From: a virus
Direction: 5' to 3' (one strand)
DNA length: 33,709 nt
Virus record (IMG/VR): IMGVR_UViG_3300029523_000016
Part shown: positions 12,078 through 22,121 of the stretch, piece by piece
How positions within the stretch are numbered: the stretch's first letter is position 1
Layout of the letters: the number at the start of each line of letters is the position of its first letter
Position numbers and translations under genes: made by a program
The notes under the pieces: model-generated
The model's database searches: none
What the model was told of the DNA's origin: nothing
Seen by the model: the letters and a program-made list of their open reading frames with translations, nothing else

Positions 12078-12314
12078 CTATCTACAATATTTGTCGTATA
12101 ATTCGCAATATTGATTTTTATATTCTTTTAAATCGTCAATTTCTTTTTGTTGTTTTTCTATTGTGTCTGCTTGCTCTTCTATTACATCAGAATATTCTTC
12201 TAATTTATCGACTAATTCCTTAATAGTTACTAAGTCTTGGTTTCTGAATATCTCTTTTATAGTGTAACCATAGAAATCTTTTAAGTTGATATAAACATTA
12301 TTCATTTTCTCCAC
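12078..12314 (-). CDS. Hypothetical acidic coiled-coil protein (78 aa)
   Basis: Track ORF in the early operon. Confidence 0.5.
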   Translation of the reverse strand: MEKMNNVYINLKDFYGYTIKEIFRNQDLVTIKELVDKLEEYSDVIEEQADTIEKQQKEIDDLKEYKNQYCELYDKYCR

Positions 12315-12562
12315 CCCCTTTTCTTTCTTTTTTCTTCAGCATCTAAATAAATATTTATATTTCTTTTTGTTTTGCTATTTTCCCATTCGTAAAGTGTAGT
12401 TCCATATTTATTTATCTGATAATCTTCTATCATTCTAATTAATTCTTCTAGATACTTGAACTCGCCATGTCTTTTAATAAATTCAACTCTAAACAAATTT
12501 CTAGTTACCATTGCTTTATCTTTATACAAATTAAAATAAAAATTCAATTTAAATTCTTCCAT
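12302..12562 (-). CDS. Hypothetical protein (86 aa)
   Basis: Track ORF with a GGAGGG RBS. Confidence 0.5.
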   Translation of the reverse strand: MEEFKLNFYFNLYKDKAMVTRNLFRVEFIKRHGEFKYLEELIRMIEDYQINKYGTTLYEWENSKTKRNINIYLDAEEKRKKRGWRK

Positions 12563-12691
12563 TTTCTTTCCCTCCTTTTATTCGCTATTTATTTTAATTT
12601 TAACGAAGTTTTAATAATTCTAATATAATTGGTCTATTTTATTATTTTCATTAATTCTAGACTAATTTAATTAAGTCTAGTGATGTATTTA

Positions 12692-12793
12692 TTAATTTAA
12701 AGATGAAATTCTTTGTAAAATTAACAAAGTGCCAACAATAATTATTGAATAAAATATAATTATACCTTTATTTTCTTTTAAAAACTTTTTCAT
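12692..12793 (-). CDS. Micro-ORF (33 aa, single TM)
   Basis: MKKFLKENKGIIIFYSIIIVGTLLILQRISSLN. The ATG overlaps the upstream stop. Confidence 0.3.
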   Translation of the reverse strand: MKKFLKENKGIIIFYSIIIVGTLLILQRISSLN

Positions 12794-12879
12794 TATATTC
12801 TTTCTCCTTTCTTAACTCCATAATATTCATATAAGTCTCTATCTAAATTATATCTTAACCATTTAATTATCTTTTTCAT
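12793..12879 (-). CDS. Micro-ORF (28 aa)
   Basis: MKKIIKWLRYNLDRDLYEYYGVKKGERI. Starts 1 nt after the upstream stop and overlaps the next ATG. Confidence 0.25.
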   Translation of the reverse strand: MKKIIKWLRYNLDRDLYEYYGVKKGERI

Positions 12880-12880
12880 T

Positions 12881-13033
12881 TTACCACTCTTCCTCTTCTA
12901 TATAGTATTTATCTTTTATTCTATTTTTTTTGTCGTATAATTTTAGCATCTTTATAAATTCTTGTGCTTCTTTAAGGGTTTTGAATTCCTTTATTTCTCC
13001 ACTTTCTTCTCCATAAACAACATAACTTTTCAT
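12881..13033 (-). CDS. First early small protein (50 aa)
   Basis: MKSYVVYGEESGEIKEFKTLKEAQEFIKMLKLYDKKNRIKDKYYIEEEEW. AGGAAGAG RBS. First ORF after the 13096 promoter. Confidence 0.4.
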   Translation of the reverse strand: MKSYVVYGEESGEIKEFKTLKEAQEFIKMLKLYDKKNRIKDKYYIEEEEW

Positions 13034-13066
13034 TTTTCATCTCTTCCTTTCCTTAATGACATTATA

Positions 13067-13096
13067 ATTGTACCATAAAGTATATACATTTGTCAA
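13067..13096 (-). promoter_or_regulatory. Early promoter, sigma-A type with extended -10
   Basis: Minus strand reads TTGACA (13096-13091), 18 nt, TGgTACAAT (13075-13067). Located immediately after the late-operon terminator. Confidence 0.65.
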
Positions 13097-13177
13097 CACA
13101 TTAAATGAAATTTCTTTATTTTTTTTACATTTTCTTTATAAACCCTTATAAAATAAAGAAAATATGCAAATCGAGGC

Positions 13178-13208
13178 ATAAAAAAAGAAGTAGGTGCTTA
13201 GCCTACTT
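13178..13208 (-). terminator. Rho-independent terminator ending the late (lysis) operon
   Basis: Minus strand reads AAGTAGG-ctaagca-CCTACTT followed by cTTTTTTTat. The stem overlaps the endolysin stop codon. Confidence 0.8.
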
Positions 13209-14022
13209 AATATAATCTTATATTGTCCCAATTTGTAGTTCCATTTTGGATATTCAAATTAACTTGTCTTTGAACTTCATCATAGTTAGAACCTAGTGCA
13301 TTTATTCTATCTTCACCATTTCCAAAGTCTCCTCTAATAGTCTTTCTAACTAAATCTAGAATATCGATGCTTGGCTCTGGTACAGGTGCTAATATTTCAT
13401 TAACTCTTGCTTGCACTTCTGCATATCTATCGCCTAATGCATTCTTTCTATCTTCACCATTACCATATTTACCAGCGATAACTTCTTGTGCTAATTCCTC
13501 TGTAGTTTTTTCTTTGATTGGCTCTGGATTATTAATCTTATTTGCTTCATCAGCGATATACTGCATTTTGCTTCTTAGATAATCTCCAGGACAAGTGGTA
13601 CTAGTAAACATACTATGCCAAGTTAAATTTTTGCCAGGTACTAATATTCCCAAGCTTCTCCTCTTAGCGATATCTGCAACCAATTTAATAACAGCATTTA
13701 AAGTAATATCGTTAACATACCAACTATTATCATTATCAGATATTTCAATAGTTACTGACTTGCAGTTGCTATCCCAATTACTATTAGTCCAAGCAGTATC
13801 TTCTTCATCAACATAATTAGCAATACTTCCATCATACCCAACACCATAGTGAGAACTACCATATCTACCTTTTGCTTGAAATATTCTACCACATTGTTTT
13901 GCAGTTAATCTTCCTGCCATATGATGAATAGTAATTGCTTCAATGCTTCTACCATCTCTGCCTTTAGTATAATTCCCCTCATCTGCAGGTACTATTATTT
14001 GTGTTAGACTTGACTTACTCAT
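13207..14022 (-). CDS. Endolysin: N-acetylmuramoyl-L-alanine amidase (Amidase_2/PGRP) with two C-terminal CW_7-like repeats
   Basis: 271 aa. ITIHHMAG...SSHYGVGYDG...TIEISD...TWHSMFTSTTCPG. Tandem repeats GKYGNGEDRKNALGDRYAEVQARVNEIL and GDFGNGEDRINALGSNYDEVQRQVNLNI. Confidence 0.9.
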   Translation of the reverse strand: MSKSSLTQIIVPADEGNYTKGRDGRSIEAITIHHMAGRLTAKQCGRIFQAKGRYGSSHYGVGYDGSIANYVDEEDTAWTNSNWDSNCKSVTIEISDNDNSWYVNDITLNAVIKLVADIAKRRSLGILVPGKNLTWHSMFTSTTCPGDYLRSKMQYIADEANKINNPEPIKEKTTEELAQEVIAGKYGNGEDRKNALGDRYAEVQARVNEILAPVPEPSIDILDLVRKTIRGDFGNGEDRINALGSNYDEVQRQVNLNIQNGTTNWDNIRLY

Positions 14023-14094
14023 CTACTTCATCCCCCTTTCCATTACTTAACTCTAATTCCATTTCTTCTGTAATTTTAATTTCTTCCATATTAT

Positions 14095-14286
14095 CTACTC
14101 TCCTTTTATTTTATTTATTGCTTTATTTCCTAATAAATATGTTGATATTACCGCTATAACTACTGCTATAGTGTTTGTTACTTTATCTGCATTGATATTC
14201 CATATAGGAGCAATTCCTATAATTAAAGCATTTATTATAGTCAATATATTCAGAATATATTTACTTGCCTTTTTAAACTTTTCCAT
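14095..14286 (-). CDS. Holin-like membrane protein (63 aa, two TM segments)
   Basis: MEKFKKASKYILNILTIINALIIGIAPIW...TIAVVIAVISTYLLGNKAINKIKGE. I prefer the ATG at 14286 (AGAGAGGTG RBS). Immediately upstream of the endolysin. Confidence 0.6.
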   Translation of the reverse strand: MEKFKKASKYILNILTIINALIIGIAPIWNINADKVTNTIAVVIAVISTYLLGNKAINKIKGE

Positions 14287-14288
14287 TC

Positions 14289-14495
14289 TTAACACCTCTC
14301 TTTCAATTCACTAATTTCTTCTTTTATATATTTAATATCATCTTCTAGTCTGAATGTTCTTTCTACTACTGAATTATGTTTCTCTACTTTTTTTTCTAAT
14401 TGAGTAATTCTATACTTAATTAAATTCATTCCAGCAAAAGAACCTACACAAGTACCTAGAAATGATAAAAGTGCTACTATTATTGTGTCATTCAT
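14289..14495 (-). CDS. BhlA/UviB-like holin-like protein (N-terminal TM plus coiled coil)
   Basis: 68 aa. IIVALLSFLGTCVGSFAGMNLI followed by a charged coiled coil. The call rests on architecture and position. Confidence 0.45.
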   Translation of the reverse strand: MNDTIIVALLSFLGTCVGSFAGMNLIKYRITQLEKKVEKHNSVVERTFRLEDDIKYIKEEISELKERC

Positions 14496-14518
14496 ATTTC
14501 CTCCTTTTTATTTTATTT

Positions 14519-15451
14519 TTATTTCCATCTTCCTATTGCTAATACTTGAAATGTATAATCTGCACTTTCACTTGAAGTTGGTGCTAATATATAAACTTTT
14601 CCAGCATTATTTGCACTTGAAAATTGTACTGCTTCTAATGAAGCATTTACTTCGTGCAATGTTACATATACAAAAGGTATATCCTTAAATGCCATAGGAT
14701 AATTTCCTAAATCTGCTTGTGTAGTGCTTTCATACATATTTCCCCATGTTGATGTTCTCGCTAAAGTTCTAGTTACTTTGTGCATAGTTATTAATCTACC
14801 ATCTGAATACTTAATCCAACTTCCATTTTTATTACTACCACTTTCAACTATATAACCAGCCCAAGGCATATAAGATGTTGGAGTTGGGCTTTCTTCTATT
14901 TGAAATTTAAGAATTAAATTATTGAATGTTCTTAAACCACTACCAAAGTATCCAATCCAATGTAGTCTTGTTTCTTCTGTTAATGTAAAGGTACTAGAAT
15001 AAGTAGTTCCATCGGAAACACCAGCTTCAATGTTTTGTGAAAAAACAATAGTACCATCATAGATGTTTGTTCCATCGCTCTTTCTTAAGTAAAAATCAAT
15101 GTCACCATCTGATAGAGAACCACTGACTTTTTTTATAGTTGCTGTATATGTCCCCGCTTTTAAAATTATACCATCTTCATCTTTATTTACATTTGGACTA
15201 TCTAAAAAAATATTTGTTGAAGTGGTTGAACTTCCATTTATTAAAATTTGATTATTTGTTTGGTTAAAATTCAATCCAGTATTAGTGCTTATTTTTGCAT
15301 TTCCAACATTAAATAAATTTTTGAATATATTGCTTTCTACTATGCCATTTACCGATTTTTTTATTTCGTTCATATCGCCAGCAGTTACTTTATTTACATT
15401 AGCAATATCTGTATTTTCATGTAATGCTACCTTATCTTCATAAGTTATCAT
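14519..15451 (-). CDS. Putative tail fibre / receptor-binding protein
   Basis: 310 aa. N-terminus MITYEDKVALHENTDIANVNKVTAGDMNEIKKSVNGIVE is typical of Firmicute-phage fibre N-termini (recalled). Last structural gene before lysis. Confidence 0.5.
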   Translation of the reverse strand: MITYEDKVALHENTDIANVNKVTAGDMNEIKKSVNGIVESNIFKNLFNVGNAKISTNTGLNFNQTNNQILINGSSTTSTNIFLDSPNVNKDEDGIILKAGTYTATIKKVSGSLSDGDIDFYLRKSDGTNIYDGTIVFSQNIEAGVSDGTTYSSTFTLTEETRLHWIGYFGSGLRTFNNLILKFQIEESPTPTSYMPWAGYIVESGSNKNGSWIKYSDGRLITMHKVTRTLARTSTWGNMYESTTQADLGNYPMAFKDIPFVYVTLHEVNASLEAVQFSSANNAGKVYILAPTSSESADYTFQVLAIGRWK

Positions 15452-18985: not shown

Positions 18986-21588
18986 TTATGCTCCTCCCAT
19001 TCCATAATTATAATCGTTTTTAGAGCCACCACTAAATGTCTTAATATTATTAACCATTTGTCCTAATGGGTCTTGCTCCATATTGTTATTTACTACTACA
19101 TTAATCTGTGGACTTAAATTAGTACTTGAACTTCCATATAGGCTAGGCGATAAACTAAACATATCATCAAACATTCCATCTACTGTTGAATTAACTTGTC
19201 CTTTCATATCTTCCATACCTTCTTCTAAACCTACCATATTCATTTTACCTATCCATGCAAATTCTGTTGATGGACTATGTATTCCAAATATACTTTTAAT
19301 TCCATTTAATATAGATTTTCCAAAGCCTTTAATCTTGTCTAATATCCATTTGCTAACATTTTTTATACCATTCCATATTCCCATAACCATATTTTTACCT
19401 ATATTAACTAATTTTTTAGGCAATTCCATAAAATAACCTACTAAAGAAGTTATTATTTTAGGAATATAACTTAAAAGTTTAGGGACTGCTTGTATTAATC
19501 CTTGCAATAAACCTATAAGTAATTGAAATCCTGCCTCTATAAATAAAGGCAAATTATCTATTAATATAGGTATAGTGCTAAGAATAGCATCTATGATAAC
19601 TGGTATCAATGTTGGTAATTGTTGTGCTAATGCTTGAATTATCATAATTAATCCTTGAATTAAAGCCTCTAGTATAATAGGCAACATATTTGCCAATTCT
19701 TGAATAATAGTAGGTAACATATCCATTAATATTTGAATAATACTAGGCAATGCTTGTGCTAGCCCTATTAACAATGTTGAAGTTCCTTGTATTAATGCTG
19801 GTAAAATTGCTTGAAGTAAAGGGGCTATCATAGGCACTAAATTATTCAATAAAGTAGTTAAGCCAGTTATTATTTGAGGTGCCATTTTGATTATAGCATT
19901 TGATATATTTGTTCCAGCAGTAGTAAAGGTACTTATCACTTCTTCTATACCACCTGCACCACTTAAAAAATTACTAAATGCCGATTTTGCACTATTTATT
20001 GAGCCACTTATAGTGGTAGAGGCTTCTTTTGCTGTCGTTCCTGTTACATCTAATTCTTCTTGAATTACATGAATAGCATTAAATACATCATTTAAATTAG
20101 AAATATCGTATTTAACTCCTGATATCTTTTCGGCATCAGCAAGTAATCTTTCCATTTCTGTTTTTGTGCCACCATACACTTGTTAACATAAAAGTTTTTT
20201 ATCTTTTATTTCTATATATTTATCATCTATATAGTTCAGCATATCTTTTAACTTATATAAAGTTCCGAAGCCTCGTGGAGGTATTATATCTTTTCAACCT
20301 CTATGCGTTGCCCCTGACTATACTTTGTATAGCCTTCGGTTCTGATTACCCTTTTTTTGATGGGCTTCCAGTTTAATTCTTCGGTTTATACTCGGCTATG
20401 GTCTTTCAACCGAGTTTTAAATTATCTAACCATTTATACCCCTAGTTTCCTAGTACTTTAACACTTATTTAAAAGTGGGATTAGACTATATCTTTATCTC
20501 ATTTGAGATAGTATGCACTTCCAATATCGTATCAATAGATATTGTACTGAGTAACGAACTCATAGTCGTTTGACCTTCCTATTTCTAGGCTTGGCACTGG
20601 ATAACCATATCTTTTAGACTTAGGCTTCCCCAGTTAGCAAGATTATCTCAACAAGTCATTTCCTACTTGTATTTTAATCTCACACCCTTGATAAGGTTCA
20701 CATACACTTACTTAATTATCACTAATTAAGCAGACATTAATTTTATCGTATAATTCTGCTTAGCAAATCCTTGATAAGCATTTTGAATATTCTCAATAGC
20801 AGTACCAAACTTATTTGAATTCCTTTAATACCCTCGGTTTCCCGATATTTATTAGGGGAGTAGACTATCTCATATTAACTCAAATACGTATCCATGATGT
20901 GTTCCTCCATGATTGCAACATCTAGAAATCTCTGATGGTAAAAATCCATCTTTTTTTGCTTCTATCATTGCATCATAAATTTGTATTTGTGTCAATCGCA
21001 CCACTTCGAATTATGTATCAATAATAATTCTACTTCCTTTCGGAATAGTCGTTACAGTTTCCTATTTTCATAGGCTTACCACGGTATTGTCCTCGGCTTT
21101 ACGTTAGGAGTTTCACCGTTAGCATAGTTTACACTACACACCCTTGATAAGGTTCAATGCGTTTAACTCGGACTATTTTGTTAATCCGCCATGTCTTGAA
21201 TAGCCATATCGCCAACTTTGGCTGCCTCTTCTGTATCTCCGCCTAGACTTTGTAATAAACTAGCACTAAATGAAGTTATTTGCTCCATATATTTATTGGC
21301 ATCAATTCCCGCTGTTGTATAGGCTTTTTTTGAGTTCTCTATAACTGTATCAGCACTATCTTTGAAAAGTGTCTCTACACCTCCGATATTCTGCTCTAAA
21401 TCAGCAACACCTTGTAAGGCATCTTTACCAAGTCCTAATAAAGAACTACCTACCTTTTCAATAGCACTAGACATTAAATTACCAATAGCAATAGTGCTTG
21501 CTTTCAATTTACCGGCGACACCATTAGTCTTTTTTTCTAGGTCTTTATCATCTCCTTTAAACTTGAAGATGACTTCTCCTCCATTCAT
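18986..21588 (-). CDS. Tail tape measure protein, four exons: 21588..21184, 20821..20753, 20438..20409, 20176..18986 (564 aa after splicing)
   Basis: Exon 1 ends ...AKVGDMAIQDMAD. Exon 2 is NSNKFGTAIENIQNAYQGFAKQN. Exon 3 is YKWLDNLKLG. Exon 4 is YGGTKTEMERLLADAEKISGVKYDISNLNDVFNAIHVIQEELDVTGTTAKEAS... followed by a long hydrophobic helical repeat region. All joins are in frame. The exon 2 / intron 2 boundary is uncertain by a few nt. Confidence 0.8.
20177..20408 (-). mobile_element. Group-I-like intron 3 (232 nt, ORF-less, minimal)
   Basis: P1: exon ACTCGGT pairs with intron GCCGAGT (nt 13-19) with a terminal U.G pair. The intron ends in G. Plausible P4/P5 with AA joiners, P8 AACTT-tatat-AAGTT, a J8/7-like AAAAGATA, and P9 CTATATA...TATATAG. 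The core was assigned by eye only. Confidence 0.55.
20439..20752 (-). mobile_element. Group I intron 2 (~314 nt, ORF-less)
   Basis: 8-bp P1 (exon TAAGCAGA with intron TCTGCTTA). GCCAAGCCTAGAAATAGGAAGGTCAAACGACTAT (P6 GAAA hairpin, J6/7, P7 5' strand) and AAAGATATAGTC (J8/7, P7 3' strand). Ends ...CTAGGGG. Confidence 0.7.
20822..21183 (-). mobile_element. Group I intron 1 (362 nt) carrying a decayed homing-endonuclease remnant
   Basis: P1: exon CGGAT pairs with intron GTCCG, with a U.G pair. AAGCCTATGAAAATAGGAAACTGTAACGACTAT and GAGATAGTC form P6/P7. Ends ...TATTAAAGG. Shares a 20-mer and other blocks with intron 2. Confidence 0.75.
20870..21004 (-). pseudogene. Remnant of a homing endonuclease C-terminal DNA-binding domain inside intron 1
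   Basis: 44-codon frame VVRLTQIQIYDAMIEAKKDGFLPSEISRCCNHGGTHHGYVFELI. It aligns with the tail of the 8839..9468 HNH (IKEYNSIKEAGLDVNGISTNIVKCLKGKTKSAYGYQWKY). No catalytic domain and no ATG. Confidence 0.5.
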
Positions 21589-21607
21589 TTATTCCACCTC
21601 CTTATTA

Positions 21608-21640
21608 TAAAATAAAGGGCTGGGCTTTTAACCCAACCCT
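21608..21640 (-). terminator. Intrinsic terminator between the major tail protein and tape measure genes
   Basis: Minus strand reads AGGGTTGGG-ttaaaag-CCCAGCCCT then TTATTTTA. The one non-Watson-Crick position is G.U in the minus-strand RNA but C/A on the other strand. Begins 7 nt after the MTP stop. Confidence 0.7.
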
Positions 21641-21647
21641 TATAGGT

Positions 21648-22121
21648 TTATCCTGCTACAACTTCTCCTTTACCAGTTACAACAATAGTTAATGCAAACT
21701 CGCCACTATCTTCAGCAGCACCGCCTAAATCACTAAAGTTCAAAGTACAAGGTACTTTATACTTAGTATAAGTCAATGCTCCTTCTTGAACTCCTGTTAA
21801 TAATTCGAATTGTACTAATTGATTATTAAATTGAGCAACAGTACCATCTTTAATTAATGTATGAATATCGCCTAATATTTTAACTACAGAAGCATTATTC
21901 ATGTCAATTTTAACAGTGGTATCAATAGATATGGCAGCACCAGTGATTATACTTCTTTGAATGGCATCGCACCAAACATACCAGTCTTGTTGCTCGAAAT
22001 CAGTTGTCAAACCAACCTCGGTAGTTGTACACATAGGAGTAAATGCAGGTACTGCACTAGTACCGGTATTTAAACCTAAGTTTTTAATGACTTCTCTATT
22101 ATTTACATAAAATTCATTCAT
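21648..22121 (-). CDS. Major tail protein
   Basis: 157 aa. Lies immediately upstream of the tape measure. Beta-rich with ...NFSDLGGAAEDSGEFALTIVVTGKG, typical of siphovirus tail tube proteins (recalled). No sheath gene is present. Confidence 0.7.
   Translation of the reverse strand: MNEFYVNNREVIKNLGLNTGTSAVPAFTPMCTTTEVGLTTDFEQQDWYVWCDAIQRSIITGAAISIDTTVKIDMNNASVVKILGDIHTLIKDGTVAQFNNQLVQFELLTGVQEGALTYTKYKVPCTLNFSDLGGAAEDSGEFALTIVVTGKGEVVAG

Follow-up and report, generated by a model that had tools for sequence, protein, structure and literature searches.

We found that, in an uncultured gut phage, insertions break up the tail tape measure gene at three sites, and we consider it very probable (roughly 0.88) that three independent mobile group I introns invaded it and left it in four exons. 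The gene lies on the minus strand of IMG/VR virus record IMGVR_UViG_3300029523_000016, a stretch of 33,709 nucleotides (nt) that was analyzed at full length and is termed the window below. In its list of open reading frames (ORFs), the ORF at 21588..21181 (minus strand) ends at a TAA stop directly after ...GDMAIQDMAD, the ORF at 20179..18986 (minus strand) opens with a GTG start followed by YGGTKTEMERLL, and the ~1 kb separating the two is without a long ORF on the coding strand. An initial annotation, made from the letters and the ORF list, had described the flanking ORF ends and the interval in these terms, and both descriptions hold. It had further called the interval less AT-rich than its surroundings, which is true relative to exon 4 and the downstream genes (GC fraction of 0.34-0.385 versus 0.25-0.32) and untrue relative to exon 1 (0.36-0.39).

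The structure of the gene is defined by an intron-less reference allele, L002, a 33-kb gut-metagenome scaffold from ENA that encodes the uninterrupted 564-amino-acid (aa) protein P0001. The L002 DNA is collinear with window 21700..21184, 20821..20745, 20430..20409 and 20176 onward at 96-97% nt identity (L002 2889..3405 corresponds to 21700..21184 and L002 3505 onward to 20176 onward), giving the following map:

Exon 1 (E1), 21588..21184, minus strand: 405 nt, 135 codons, from ATG 21588 to ...GCG GAT; collinear with L002 2889..3405.
Predicted intron 1 (I1), 21183..20822, minus strand: 362 nt; missing from L002 with exact boundaries.
Exon 2 (E2), 20821..20745, minus strand: 77 nt; NSNKFGTAIENIQNAYQGFAKQNYT plus the AT of a Met codon; equals L002 3406..3482.
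Predicted intron 2 (I2), 20744..20431, minus strand: 314 nt; boundaries taken from intron-less alleles, unambiguous.
Exon 3 (E3), 20430..20409, minus strand: 22-nt micro-exon; the G of the Met codon plus LDNLKLG; equals L002 3483..3504.
Predicted intron 3 (I3), 20408..20177, minus strand: 232 nt; missing from L002.
Exon 4 (E4), 20176..18986, minus strand: 1191 nt including the stop; YGGTKTEMERLL... to the C-terminus; equals L002 3505..4695 at 97% identity.

Excision of the three segments (362 + 314 + 232 = 908 nt) would yield a 564-aa product, as initially calculated, and this conceptual product is 99% identical in aa over its full length to P0001, which has the motif ...QDMADNSNKFGTAIENIQNAYQGFAKQNYTMLDNLKLGYGGTKTEMERLL... 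and is the best of many uninterrupted 564-aa proteins among the thousands of relatives returned by a protein search. In PHROG, the product hits a dozen families that bear the name tail length tape measure protein (phrog_6900, E=7.6e-69; phrog_58, E=3e-63; also phrog_991, phrog_3981 and others), while a Pfam search of the product matched no family. The four exons run without a frameshift or stop and are 96-100% identical to intact alleles, and E3 is 100% conserved across all alleles that have both I2 and I3. Since the true junctions are flanked by differing bases, there is no room for the splice boundaries to slide; the predicted ligated junctions (carets mark joins) are GGCGGAT^AATTCAAA, TATACGAT^GTTAGATAA and AACTCGGT^TATGGTGG. 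The insertion sites S1, S2 and S3 fall after nt 405, 482 and 504 of the uninterrupted coding sequence (CDS) and span 99 nt that encode its most conserved motif (...MAD^NSNKFGT..AYQGFAKQNYTM^LDNLKLG^YGGTK...). The same three insertions recur at the same positions in the independent assemblies L012, L013 and L019; the interruption is not due to chance.

Each of the three segments carries group I hallmarks: an exon U at position -1 opposite a guide G in the P1 helix and a terminal G, in keeping with the exon-end T and intron-end G that had been pointed out initially for every junction. Homologues at all three sites likewise end in G. The P1 helices with a terminal U.G pair that had been proposed for the first and third introns are present as CGGAU/GUCCG and CUCGGU/GCCGAG. 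The internal guides, together with an ORF remnant within I1, are as follows:

I1 guide GUCCG, 21169..21173, minus strand: pairs with exon 1 end CGGAU (P1, terminal U.G).
I2 guide UAAU^GUC, 20733..20739, minus strand: GUC pairs with exon 2 end GAU and UAAU with exon 3 start GUUA.
I3 guide ACCAUA^GCCGAG, 20391..20402, minus strand: GCCGAG pairs with exon 3 end CUCGGU (P1) and ACCAUA with exon 4 start UAUGGU (P10).
Remnant ORF of 44 aa in the P8 loop of I1, 20870..21004, minus strand: phrog_20162 (HNH endonuclease), E=2e-4.

A focused scan of 20100-21300 with the Rfam group I model RF00028 (gathering score of 50 bits), a check that the initial annotation had proposed for the minus strand, matched all three segments below the gathering score: I2 over the full model, positions 1-253 (20705..20463, 43.9 bits, E=1.3e-9), I1 over the full model (21166..20962, 16.3 bits, E=0.24) and I3 in its P4-P5 part only (20371..20342, 13 bits, E=2.3). 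The same-site homologue of I2 in L035, a Tissierellia metagenome-assembled genome (MAG), scores 54 bits and exceeds the gathering score. The low score of I1 is explained by the ORF remnant in P8 and that of I3 by its membership of a compact divergent subfamily.

I2 starts with AAAAUUAAUGUC, ends in ...UAUAAAUG (...AAAUG) and reaches an in-frame stop six codons in. Its guide is a contiguous run of 7 nt serving both P1 and a P10 of 4-5 bp (GUUA(G)/(U)UAAU). The minimum-free-energy (MFE) fold displays P2, a long-range helix at the P3 position, P4-P6, P7.1, P7.2, P8 and P9, and the folding z-score relative to dinucleotide shuffles, a comparison used for all three introns, is -3.9. Longer P1 candidates upstream of GAU (AAGCAGA/UCUGCUU, AUACG/UGUAU) were rejected, as they clash with the conserved guide or are unconserved in Lactococcus phage 38502 or L035. 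At this site introns come as a size series of 843, 388 and 314 nt, of which the variants of 842-843 nt (L014, L016) are long enough for an endonuclease ORF; those of Lactococcus phage 38502 and Streptococcus phage Str-PAP-1 have annotated endonuclease ORFs. From its predicted core and homologues, I2 appears to be an ORF-less, minimal Twort-type group I intron.

I1 starts at an in-frame TAA (nt 1-3) and ends in ...AAAGG, with a folding z-score of -2.4. With I2 it shares a common core comprising GAACCUUAUCAAGGGUGUG, UGCUAAC with P4, and the two strands of P7, AACGACUAU on the 5′ side and GAUAGUCUA on the 3′ side. Twort-type introns from phages of Staphylococcus, Listeria, Enterococcus and Bacillus match both I1 and I2. 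The two differ in the sequence of P2, the P3-position helix, P7.1 and P7.2 while keeping the pairing. The P3-position helix covaries (GUAUG/CAUAC in I2, GUACG/CGUAC in phage 38502, CGCAU/GUGCG in I1), and the P7.1/P7.2-position hairpins lie between the P7 5′ strand and P3′ in both. In Twort, the gene annotated as terminase large subunit contains an element to which the core of I1 aligns in two pieces at ~92% identity. The 44-aa remnant aligns to C-terminal positions 42-80 of the 88 of phrog_20162 and is enclosed by P8 (AUUGAC/GUUAAU), and window 20988..20745 aligns with L004 1920..2163, a segment that takes in the 3′ end of the HNH ORF of L004. Versions of I1 with 863 nt and a NUMOD4+HNH_3 ORF are found in L004, L019 and L022, and the size series runs 863, 419 and 362 nt. 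These comparisons identify I1 as a probable Twort-type (IA2-like), ORF-deleted derivative of the 863-nt HNH-carrying intron.

I3 starts at an in-frame TGA (nt 1-3), ends in ...AAGUG and has a folding z-score of -3.6. Its guide forms 12 contiguous pairs with the ligated junction, 6 bp of which are P10, and a GCCAUA guide variant keeps P10 through a G.U pair. Related DNA occupies gaps that split the terminase genes of Lactobacillus phage JCL1032 (whose terminase CDS is annotated as a join), Staphylococcus phage PMBT8 and an Exiguobacterium phage (where an HNH gene comes next), and it also splits a capsid gene of bajarodcaudo virus 1. A strand-by-strand check across five lineages found covariation in P3, P4, P6, P7.2, P8, P9 and P9.1: P3 has four variants (CCGAAG/CUUCGG, CGGCGG/CCGCCG, GUGCGGU/ACCGCAC, UCGGAG/CUCCGA) and the other helices have 3-5 each, the sole mismatch being in P9.1 of PMBT8. 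Unconstrained MFE folds of I3 and its JCL1032 and PMBT8 counterparts place P3, P4, P5, P6, P8, P9 and P9.1 at equivalent positions, with P7.2 appearing only in that of JCL1032. A MAFFT alignment of I3 with distant homologues, in which the 5′ halves and the P8/P9 loops were out of register, was not used for pair counts. In intron coordinates the predicted helices are:

P3, I3 nt 25-30/139-144.
P4, I3 nt 38-41/64-67.
P5, I3 nt 44-47/58-61.
P6, I3 nt 77-82/86-91.
P7.2, I3 nt 108-112/127-131.
P8, I3 nt 145-149/155-159.
P9, I3 nt 175-181/191-197.
P9.1, I3 nt 202-206/215-219.
P7 (tentative), I3 nt 92-95/170-173, UCAG/CUGA.

In all likelihood, I3 is a compact group I intron that has no ORF and belongs with the terminase intron of JCL1032 in one family. 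The subgroup labels that we use, IA2 for I1 and I2 and IA1 for I3, are provisional and follow resemblance to typed members; I3 resembles the JCL1032/phiSH1-like family, which PMC2504315 ties to its IA1 introns.

A further line of evidence comes from the exon bases that pair with the guides. Alleles with I1 have exon G at -4 (GCG-GAT) in 6/6 cases and empty ones in 0/16 (GCA/GCT); alleles with I2 have exon G at -3 (ACG) in 13/13 and empty ones in 0/10 (ACC/ACT/ACA), with the same G in phage 38502, Str-PAP-1 and L035; and CTC-GGT marks 10/10 alleles with the window type of I3 and 0/11 without it. Across the 23 close relatives, the synonymous guide-pairing base tracks occupancy without exception, in counts drawn from related sequences rather than independent events and uncorrected for shared ancestry. 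Such a pattern would be expected from selection on P1, from co-conversion during homing, or from both. E2 itself shows the lowest DNA conservation between otherwise near-identical genomes (83-98% versus 96-100% for its neighbours), with all differences inspected near the junctions being synonymous. Co-conversion that has recurred, or selection acting on the targets of homing endonucleases, would be in line with this.

The proposal that three group I introns sit in a tape measure gene, first made in the initial annotation, is hence supported by collinearity, PHROG matches, RF00028, guides, the HNH homing endonucleases that relatives carry in the same introns, and homologues. Several points weigh against it, among them the shared ancestry behind the flank counts. 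Rfam scans of the whole window, at the gathering threshold and by E-value, returned no match, and in the focused scan all three introns stayed under the RF00028 gathering score (I1 at 16 and I3 at 13 bits). A search for a P10 of I1 found no convincing pairing; group I introns do not all require a P10. I1 also holds a dead ORF of ~190 nt in its P8 loop that might slow its folding, the P1 of I2 has only 3-4 bp, and the P7 of I3 is backed in only two lineages. In I1 and I2, two hairpins stand between the P3-position 5′ strand and P4, a layout that is hard to square with the standard diagram, and helix labels around the P3-position helix may be wrong. Finally, that the transcript is spliced, and how efficiently, we infer from the sequence. 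A multi-locus Rfam scan missed every ORF-carrying intron and matched only two introns, both in L035.

We posit a mechanism drawn from the established group I pathway. The gene would be transcribed as one pre-mRNA, in which each intron would fold to a ribozyme core and its guide would pair with the end of the upstream exon, setting the splice-site U opposite a G. Free guanosine would then attack the 5′ splice site, and the freed 3′-OH of the exon would attack past the terminal G of the intron, with P10 aiding this step in I2 and I3. Three such rounds would join the four exons into the mRNA for the 564-aa protein. The stops at or near the intron starts (TAA in I1, TGA in I3, six codons into I2) would halt ribosomes before they reach the ribozyme.

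Alternative explanations were weighed against this account. The insertions could be decayed, non-splicing intron relics that leave the tape measure gene a pseudogene of a defective phage or prophage; the want of an endonuclease gene in any of the three, the visible origin of I1 by deletion and the Rfam scores under the gathering threshold speak for this. The intact exons speak against it, as do the intact core helices and guide pairings and the ORF-less I2 and I3 themselves, which are kept 98-100% identical in many diverged full-length genomes (~32-34-kb contigs), an upkeep unexpected for dead insertions in an essential gene, and we regard relics as unlikely. Similarly improbable is a pair of related readings in which the close packing of the sites matters in itself. 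Under one, the packing would be functional and E2 and E3 would be skipped jointly, with the 5′ splice site of I1 joined to the 3′ splice site of I3, yielding an isoform without the 33 most conserved residues; it would remain in frame because E1 ends and E4 starts on codon boundaries and E2 and E3 together make 99 nt (33 codons). This hypothetical skipping would have a counterpart in Twort orf142, in which skipping of an exon is documented. Under the other, the three ORF-less introns would move as a ~1-kb cassette by co-conversion, an HNH endonuclease being supplied in trans from a co-infecting sibling; this would fit the finding that I2 beside I3 is always short and that full-length I2 occurs only where site 3 is empty. 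An assembly artefact or chimera joining intron-bearing reads of other phages is a very remote prospect. The window does come from metagenomic-type data and relatives with differing intron content co-occur in the same collections, but the independently assembled L012, L013 and L019 have all three sites filled with the same junctions, single and double occupancy recurs in ENA, Logan, IMG/VR and a GTDB MAG, and exon flanks match intron presence site by site, a match that a chimera would tend to break.

Expression without RNA splicing has just as slender a chance, be it by ribosomal bypassing, by protein splicing or by the assembly of pieces that are translated separately. There are known phage genes that a free-standing endonuclease gene divides and that are translated in pieces, and E4 has a possible GTG start; yet E2 and E3 (25 and 7 codons) are without start codons or ribosome-binding sites, the gaps of 232-362 nt with their multiple stops are far past known bypassing, there is no intein-like ORF, and all three gaps show group I hallmarks and have group I homologues. 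The least probable of all concerns only the borders of I2. The initial annotation correctly called four exons with two micro-exons, and it set I2 at 20752..20439 instead of 20744..20431, 8 nt too far upstream at both ends with length and frame kept, so that the micro-exons came out at 69 and 30 nt rather than 77 and 22 nt. With E2 ending in ...CAGAAT at 20753 and E3 starting with TATAAATGG at 20438, the ligated DNA would read ...CAGAATTATAAATGG... and the protein ...QNYKWLDNLKLG..., turning YTM into YKW. These junctions, too, have a U at -1 and a G at the intron end and keep the frame. However, all uninterrupted homologues have QNYTMLDNLKLG, the very motif that the initial annotation had given for intact tape measure proteins and that already pointed to the corrected junction; collinearity with L002, L003 and L004 places the junction unambiguously after ...TATACGAT and before GTTAGAT; the true junction recurs in Lactococcus phage 38502, Str-PAP-1 and L035; and the guide UAAUGUC pairs with GAU^GUUA and not with that alternative. 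The joined peptide ...AKQN^YKWLDNLKLG is consequently replaced by ...AKQNYTM^LDNLKLG..., the reading given by L002 collinearity.

Within the group I intron account, the distribution of the insertions points to their mobility. Loci from 28 IMG/VR, three GTDB and several ENA/Logan contigs were mapped on the uninterrupted CDS, with the following occupancy:

No site filled: L002/6, L007, L008, L009, L025.
S1: L003.
S2: L014-L017, L034.
S3: L018, L021.
S2 and S3: L010, L011, L020, L023.
S1 and S3: L004, L022.
All three sites: the window, L012, L013, L019.

Counted overall, relatives show every combination of filled and empty sites (eight states), seven of which have loci in this list.

I2 and I3 are 98-100% identical between genomes with exons that are 73-94% identical (e.g., L019: 100% in I3 and 98.4% in I2 as against 73% in exon 4 nt 901-1300); introns that are more alike than their exons indicate lateral spread. 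The window copies of I1, I2 and I3 are without an endonuclease gene. NUMOD4+HNH_3 proteins are encoded in siblings by the 863-nt I1 and by a 794-nt alternative site-3 intron, and such endonuclease-encoding siblings explain the spread of introns between phages. The size series of I1 and I2 show endonuclease loss. By comparison with L004 2164-2979, L022, L005, L031-33, L036 and L037 (MissG1), site 3 hosts at least two unrelated intron types, namely the compact 232-nt JCL1032-like type of the window and a Twort-like type. The latter measures 794-921 nt where its P6 holds an HNH ORF and ~310 nt in the ORF-free form of Streptococcus phage MissG1. Their guides are adapted to local synonymous codons, the exon:guide pairs in three intron lineages at this site being CUCGGU:GCCGAG, UUGGGU:GCUCAA and CUGGGU:GCUCAG. 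The 842-843-nt I2 (L014, L016) is found only where site 3, 22 bp away, is empty, and in genomes with both I2 and I3 (L010-13, L019, L020, L023 and the window) I2 has 313-315 or 388 nt; in this small sample, the pattern may reflect interference between neighbouring homing sites or hitch-hiking.

Outside the lineage, 379 deposited phage genomes contain the 123-aa segment around the three sites, and in 362 of them it is uninterrupted; most records name it either tape measure, as 300+ of the deposited phages do, or minor tail protein. Site 2 is also filled in Lactococcus phage 38502, Str-PAP-1 and L035, and site 3 in MissG1 (annotated ncRNA, identical guide), L031-33 and L036. Those of 38502 (site 2), Str-PAP-1 (site 2 and upstream) and MissG1 (site 3) are inserted at identical points in QNYTM^LDNLKLG^YGGT and use the same guides as the window (UAAUGUC at site 2, ACCAUAGCCGAG at site 3), with HNH or endonuclease ORFs present in the introns of 38502 and Str-PAP-1; these phages have one or two introns versus three in the window. 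In Str-PAP-1 (L042, KP208803, 1-1700), a second endonuclease-carrying insertion lies just upstream of the site-2 intron, with coding resuming near ...NKMG^TSMESIQ and only "endonuclease" and "tail tape measure protein" CDSs annotated. The hotspot seems to include this further insertion site between sites 1 and 2.

The initial annotation had deemed several introns and micro-exons in one structural gene unusual, which overstates the case given Twort orf142 (PMC10136302) and the tape measure genes of the Bacillus cereus group (PMC2504315). Twort orf142, now recognized as the tail tube gene, has three group I introns with a 23-nt exon between introns 2 and 3 and undergoes exon skipping (PMC10136302, PMC11878797; Landthaler and Shub 1999 via these). 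Like the window gene, it is a late structural tail gene with three ORF-less group I introns and IA2-type cores (a provisional label for I1 and I2 of the window), and its micro-exon has 23 nt against 22 nt in the window. It differs in being the tail tube gene of a 130-kb myovirus, as opposed to the tape measure gene of a ~33-kb uncultured gut phage, in its introns 2 and 3 being near-copies, whereas I3 belongs to a family other than that of I1 and I2, and in that its exon skipping was shown by experiment, while the window is known from its DNA. Tape measure genes of B. cereus-group prophages carry the group I introns TMP-IVS1, IVS2, IVS3a and IVS3b at three sites (Tourasse and Kolsto 2008, PMC2504315), with IA2 relatives at two of them and two different IA1 introns with near-identical guides at the third; an endonuclease gene is missing from most copies, and the introns are patchily distributed among the phages (PMC2504315). 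At most two introns per gene are described there (e.g., IVS1 and IVS3a in E33L), in a protein of >1200 aa, and the published site alignment omits the central part of the gene (PMC2504315). The resemblance to the window extends to the class of host gene, the three sites, a related pair (provisionally IA2-type in the window) with a different class at the third site, two different introns with near-identical guides at one site, the mostly endonuclease-free copies and the patchy distribution. Unlike in those genes, the three sites of the window are crowded into 99 nt and all filled in one gene, the sites having been compared by description.

The intron in the terminase large-subunit gene of Lactobacillus delbrueckii phage JCL1032 (EU409559) is a homologue of I3 with a 35-nt block of 94% identity and the same P3/P4/P6/P7.2/P8/P9/P9.1 architecture with compensatory changes, differing in gene, site and guide (AACGGU:GCCGUU versus CUCGGU:GCCGAG). 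It reportedly self-splices. Among other precedents, phages of the Bastillevirinae have two or three group I introns in one essential gene, with up to three in polymerase or terminase genes, and their introns favour DNA-metabolism genes (PMC11878797); the Streptococcus thermophilus lysin intron has deletion derivatives, according to what PMC11878797 cites of Foley et al. 2000. Like I1 and I2, those systems show an endonuclease-deleted series of a single intron; their introns lie in DNA polymerase, terminase and lysin genes, that of the window in a virion structural gene. Every single feature described here has precedent and no new mechanism is revealed; what is specific to the window is three sites in 99 nt that are all filled, a 22-nt exon, a natural occupancy series and a lineage of uncultured gut phages.

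In its genome setting, the tape measure gene sits between small tail-module genes and large distal tail genes, in a window with almost all genes on the minus strand. Its neighbours among the tail genes, with products of 157, 496 and 647 aa, matched no PHROG family. A strong Shine-Dalgarno sequence (AAGGAGGTGG, 21603..21594, minus strand) lies upstream of ATG 21588. At 21641-21604 (minus strand), a strong terminator-like hairpin of 12 pairs followed by a T-run separates the upstream 157-aa tail gene from the tape measure start codon, and directly after it comes a promoter-like TTAAAA-16-TATAAT; this suggests that the tape measure gene may start its own transcription unit or undergo attenuation. 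A permissive Rfam scan of the coding strand over 12300-14700 found no RNA family and no further introns in the non-coding gaps 12562-13207 and 14022-14519. A megablast of the window against 50,697 deposited phage records returned only intron fragments and no phage relative; its relatives are contigs of ~31-34 kb from human-gut metagenomes and IMG/VR, and one relative is binned in a "Bacilli bacterium" MAG.

The finding bears first on annotation. Gene calling breaks the window gene into a pair of unrelated ORFs (135 and 397 aa), and the protein clusters P0058, P0062, P0072, P0088, P0095 and P0111, with 60-196 members of 389-404 aa each, hold exon 4 or exons 3 and 4 only and start at fortuitous GTG or ATG codons; these exon-fragment clusters are a systematic gene-calling artefact arising from these introns. 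The introns went unannotated because their scores are below the gathering threshold and whole-window scans come back empty. In GenBank, the tape measure genes of 38502, Str-PAP-1 and MissG1 appear as two CDSs with an "endonuclease" or "ncRNA", not as genes with introns; tape measure genes are thus systematically mis-annotated, both within this lineage of gut phages and in several Streptococcus and Lactococcus phages that have been deposited. The lineage also provides a natural occupancy series for three sites in 99 nt, with full, part-deleted and minimal introns and with two unrelated introns competing for one site (site 3), and it is well suited to work on how introns are gained, how endonucleases are lost, and how co-conversion and the interference of neighbouring homing sites operate. 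A virion structural gene can be an intron hotspot, as DNA-metabolism genes are, and the main value of this case lies in annotation and as a model of intron population dynamics, rather than in mechanism.

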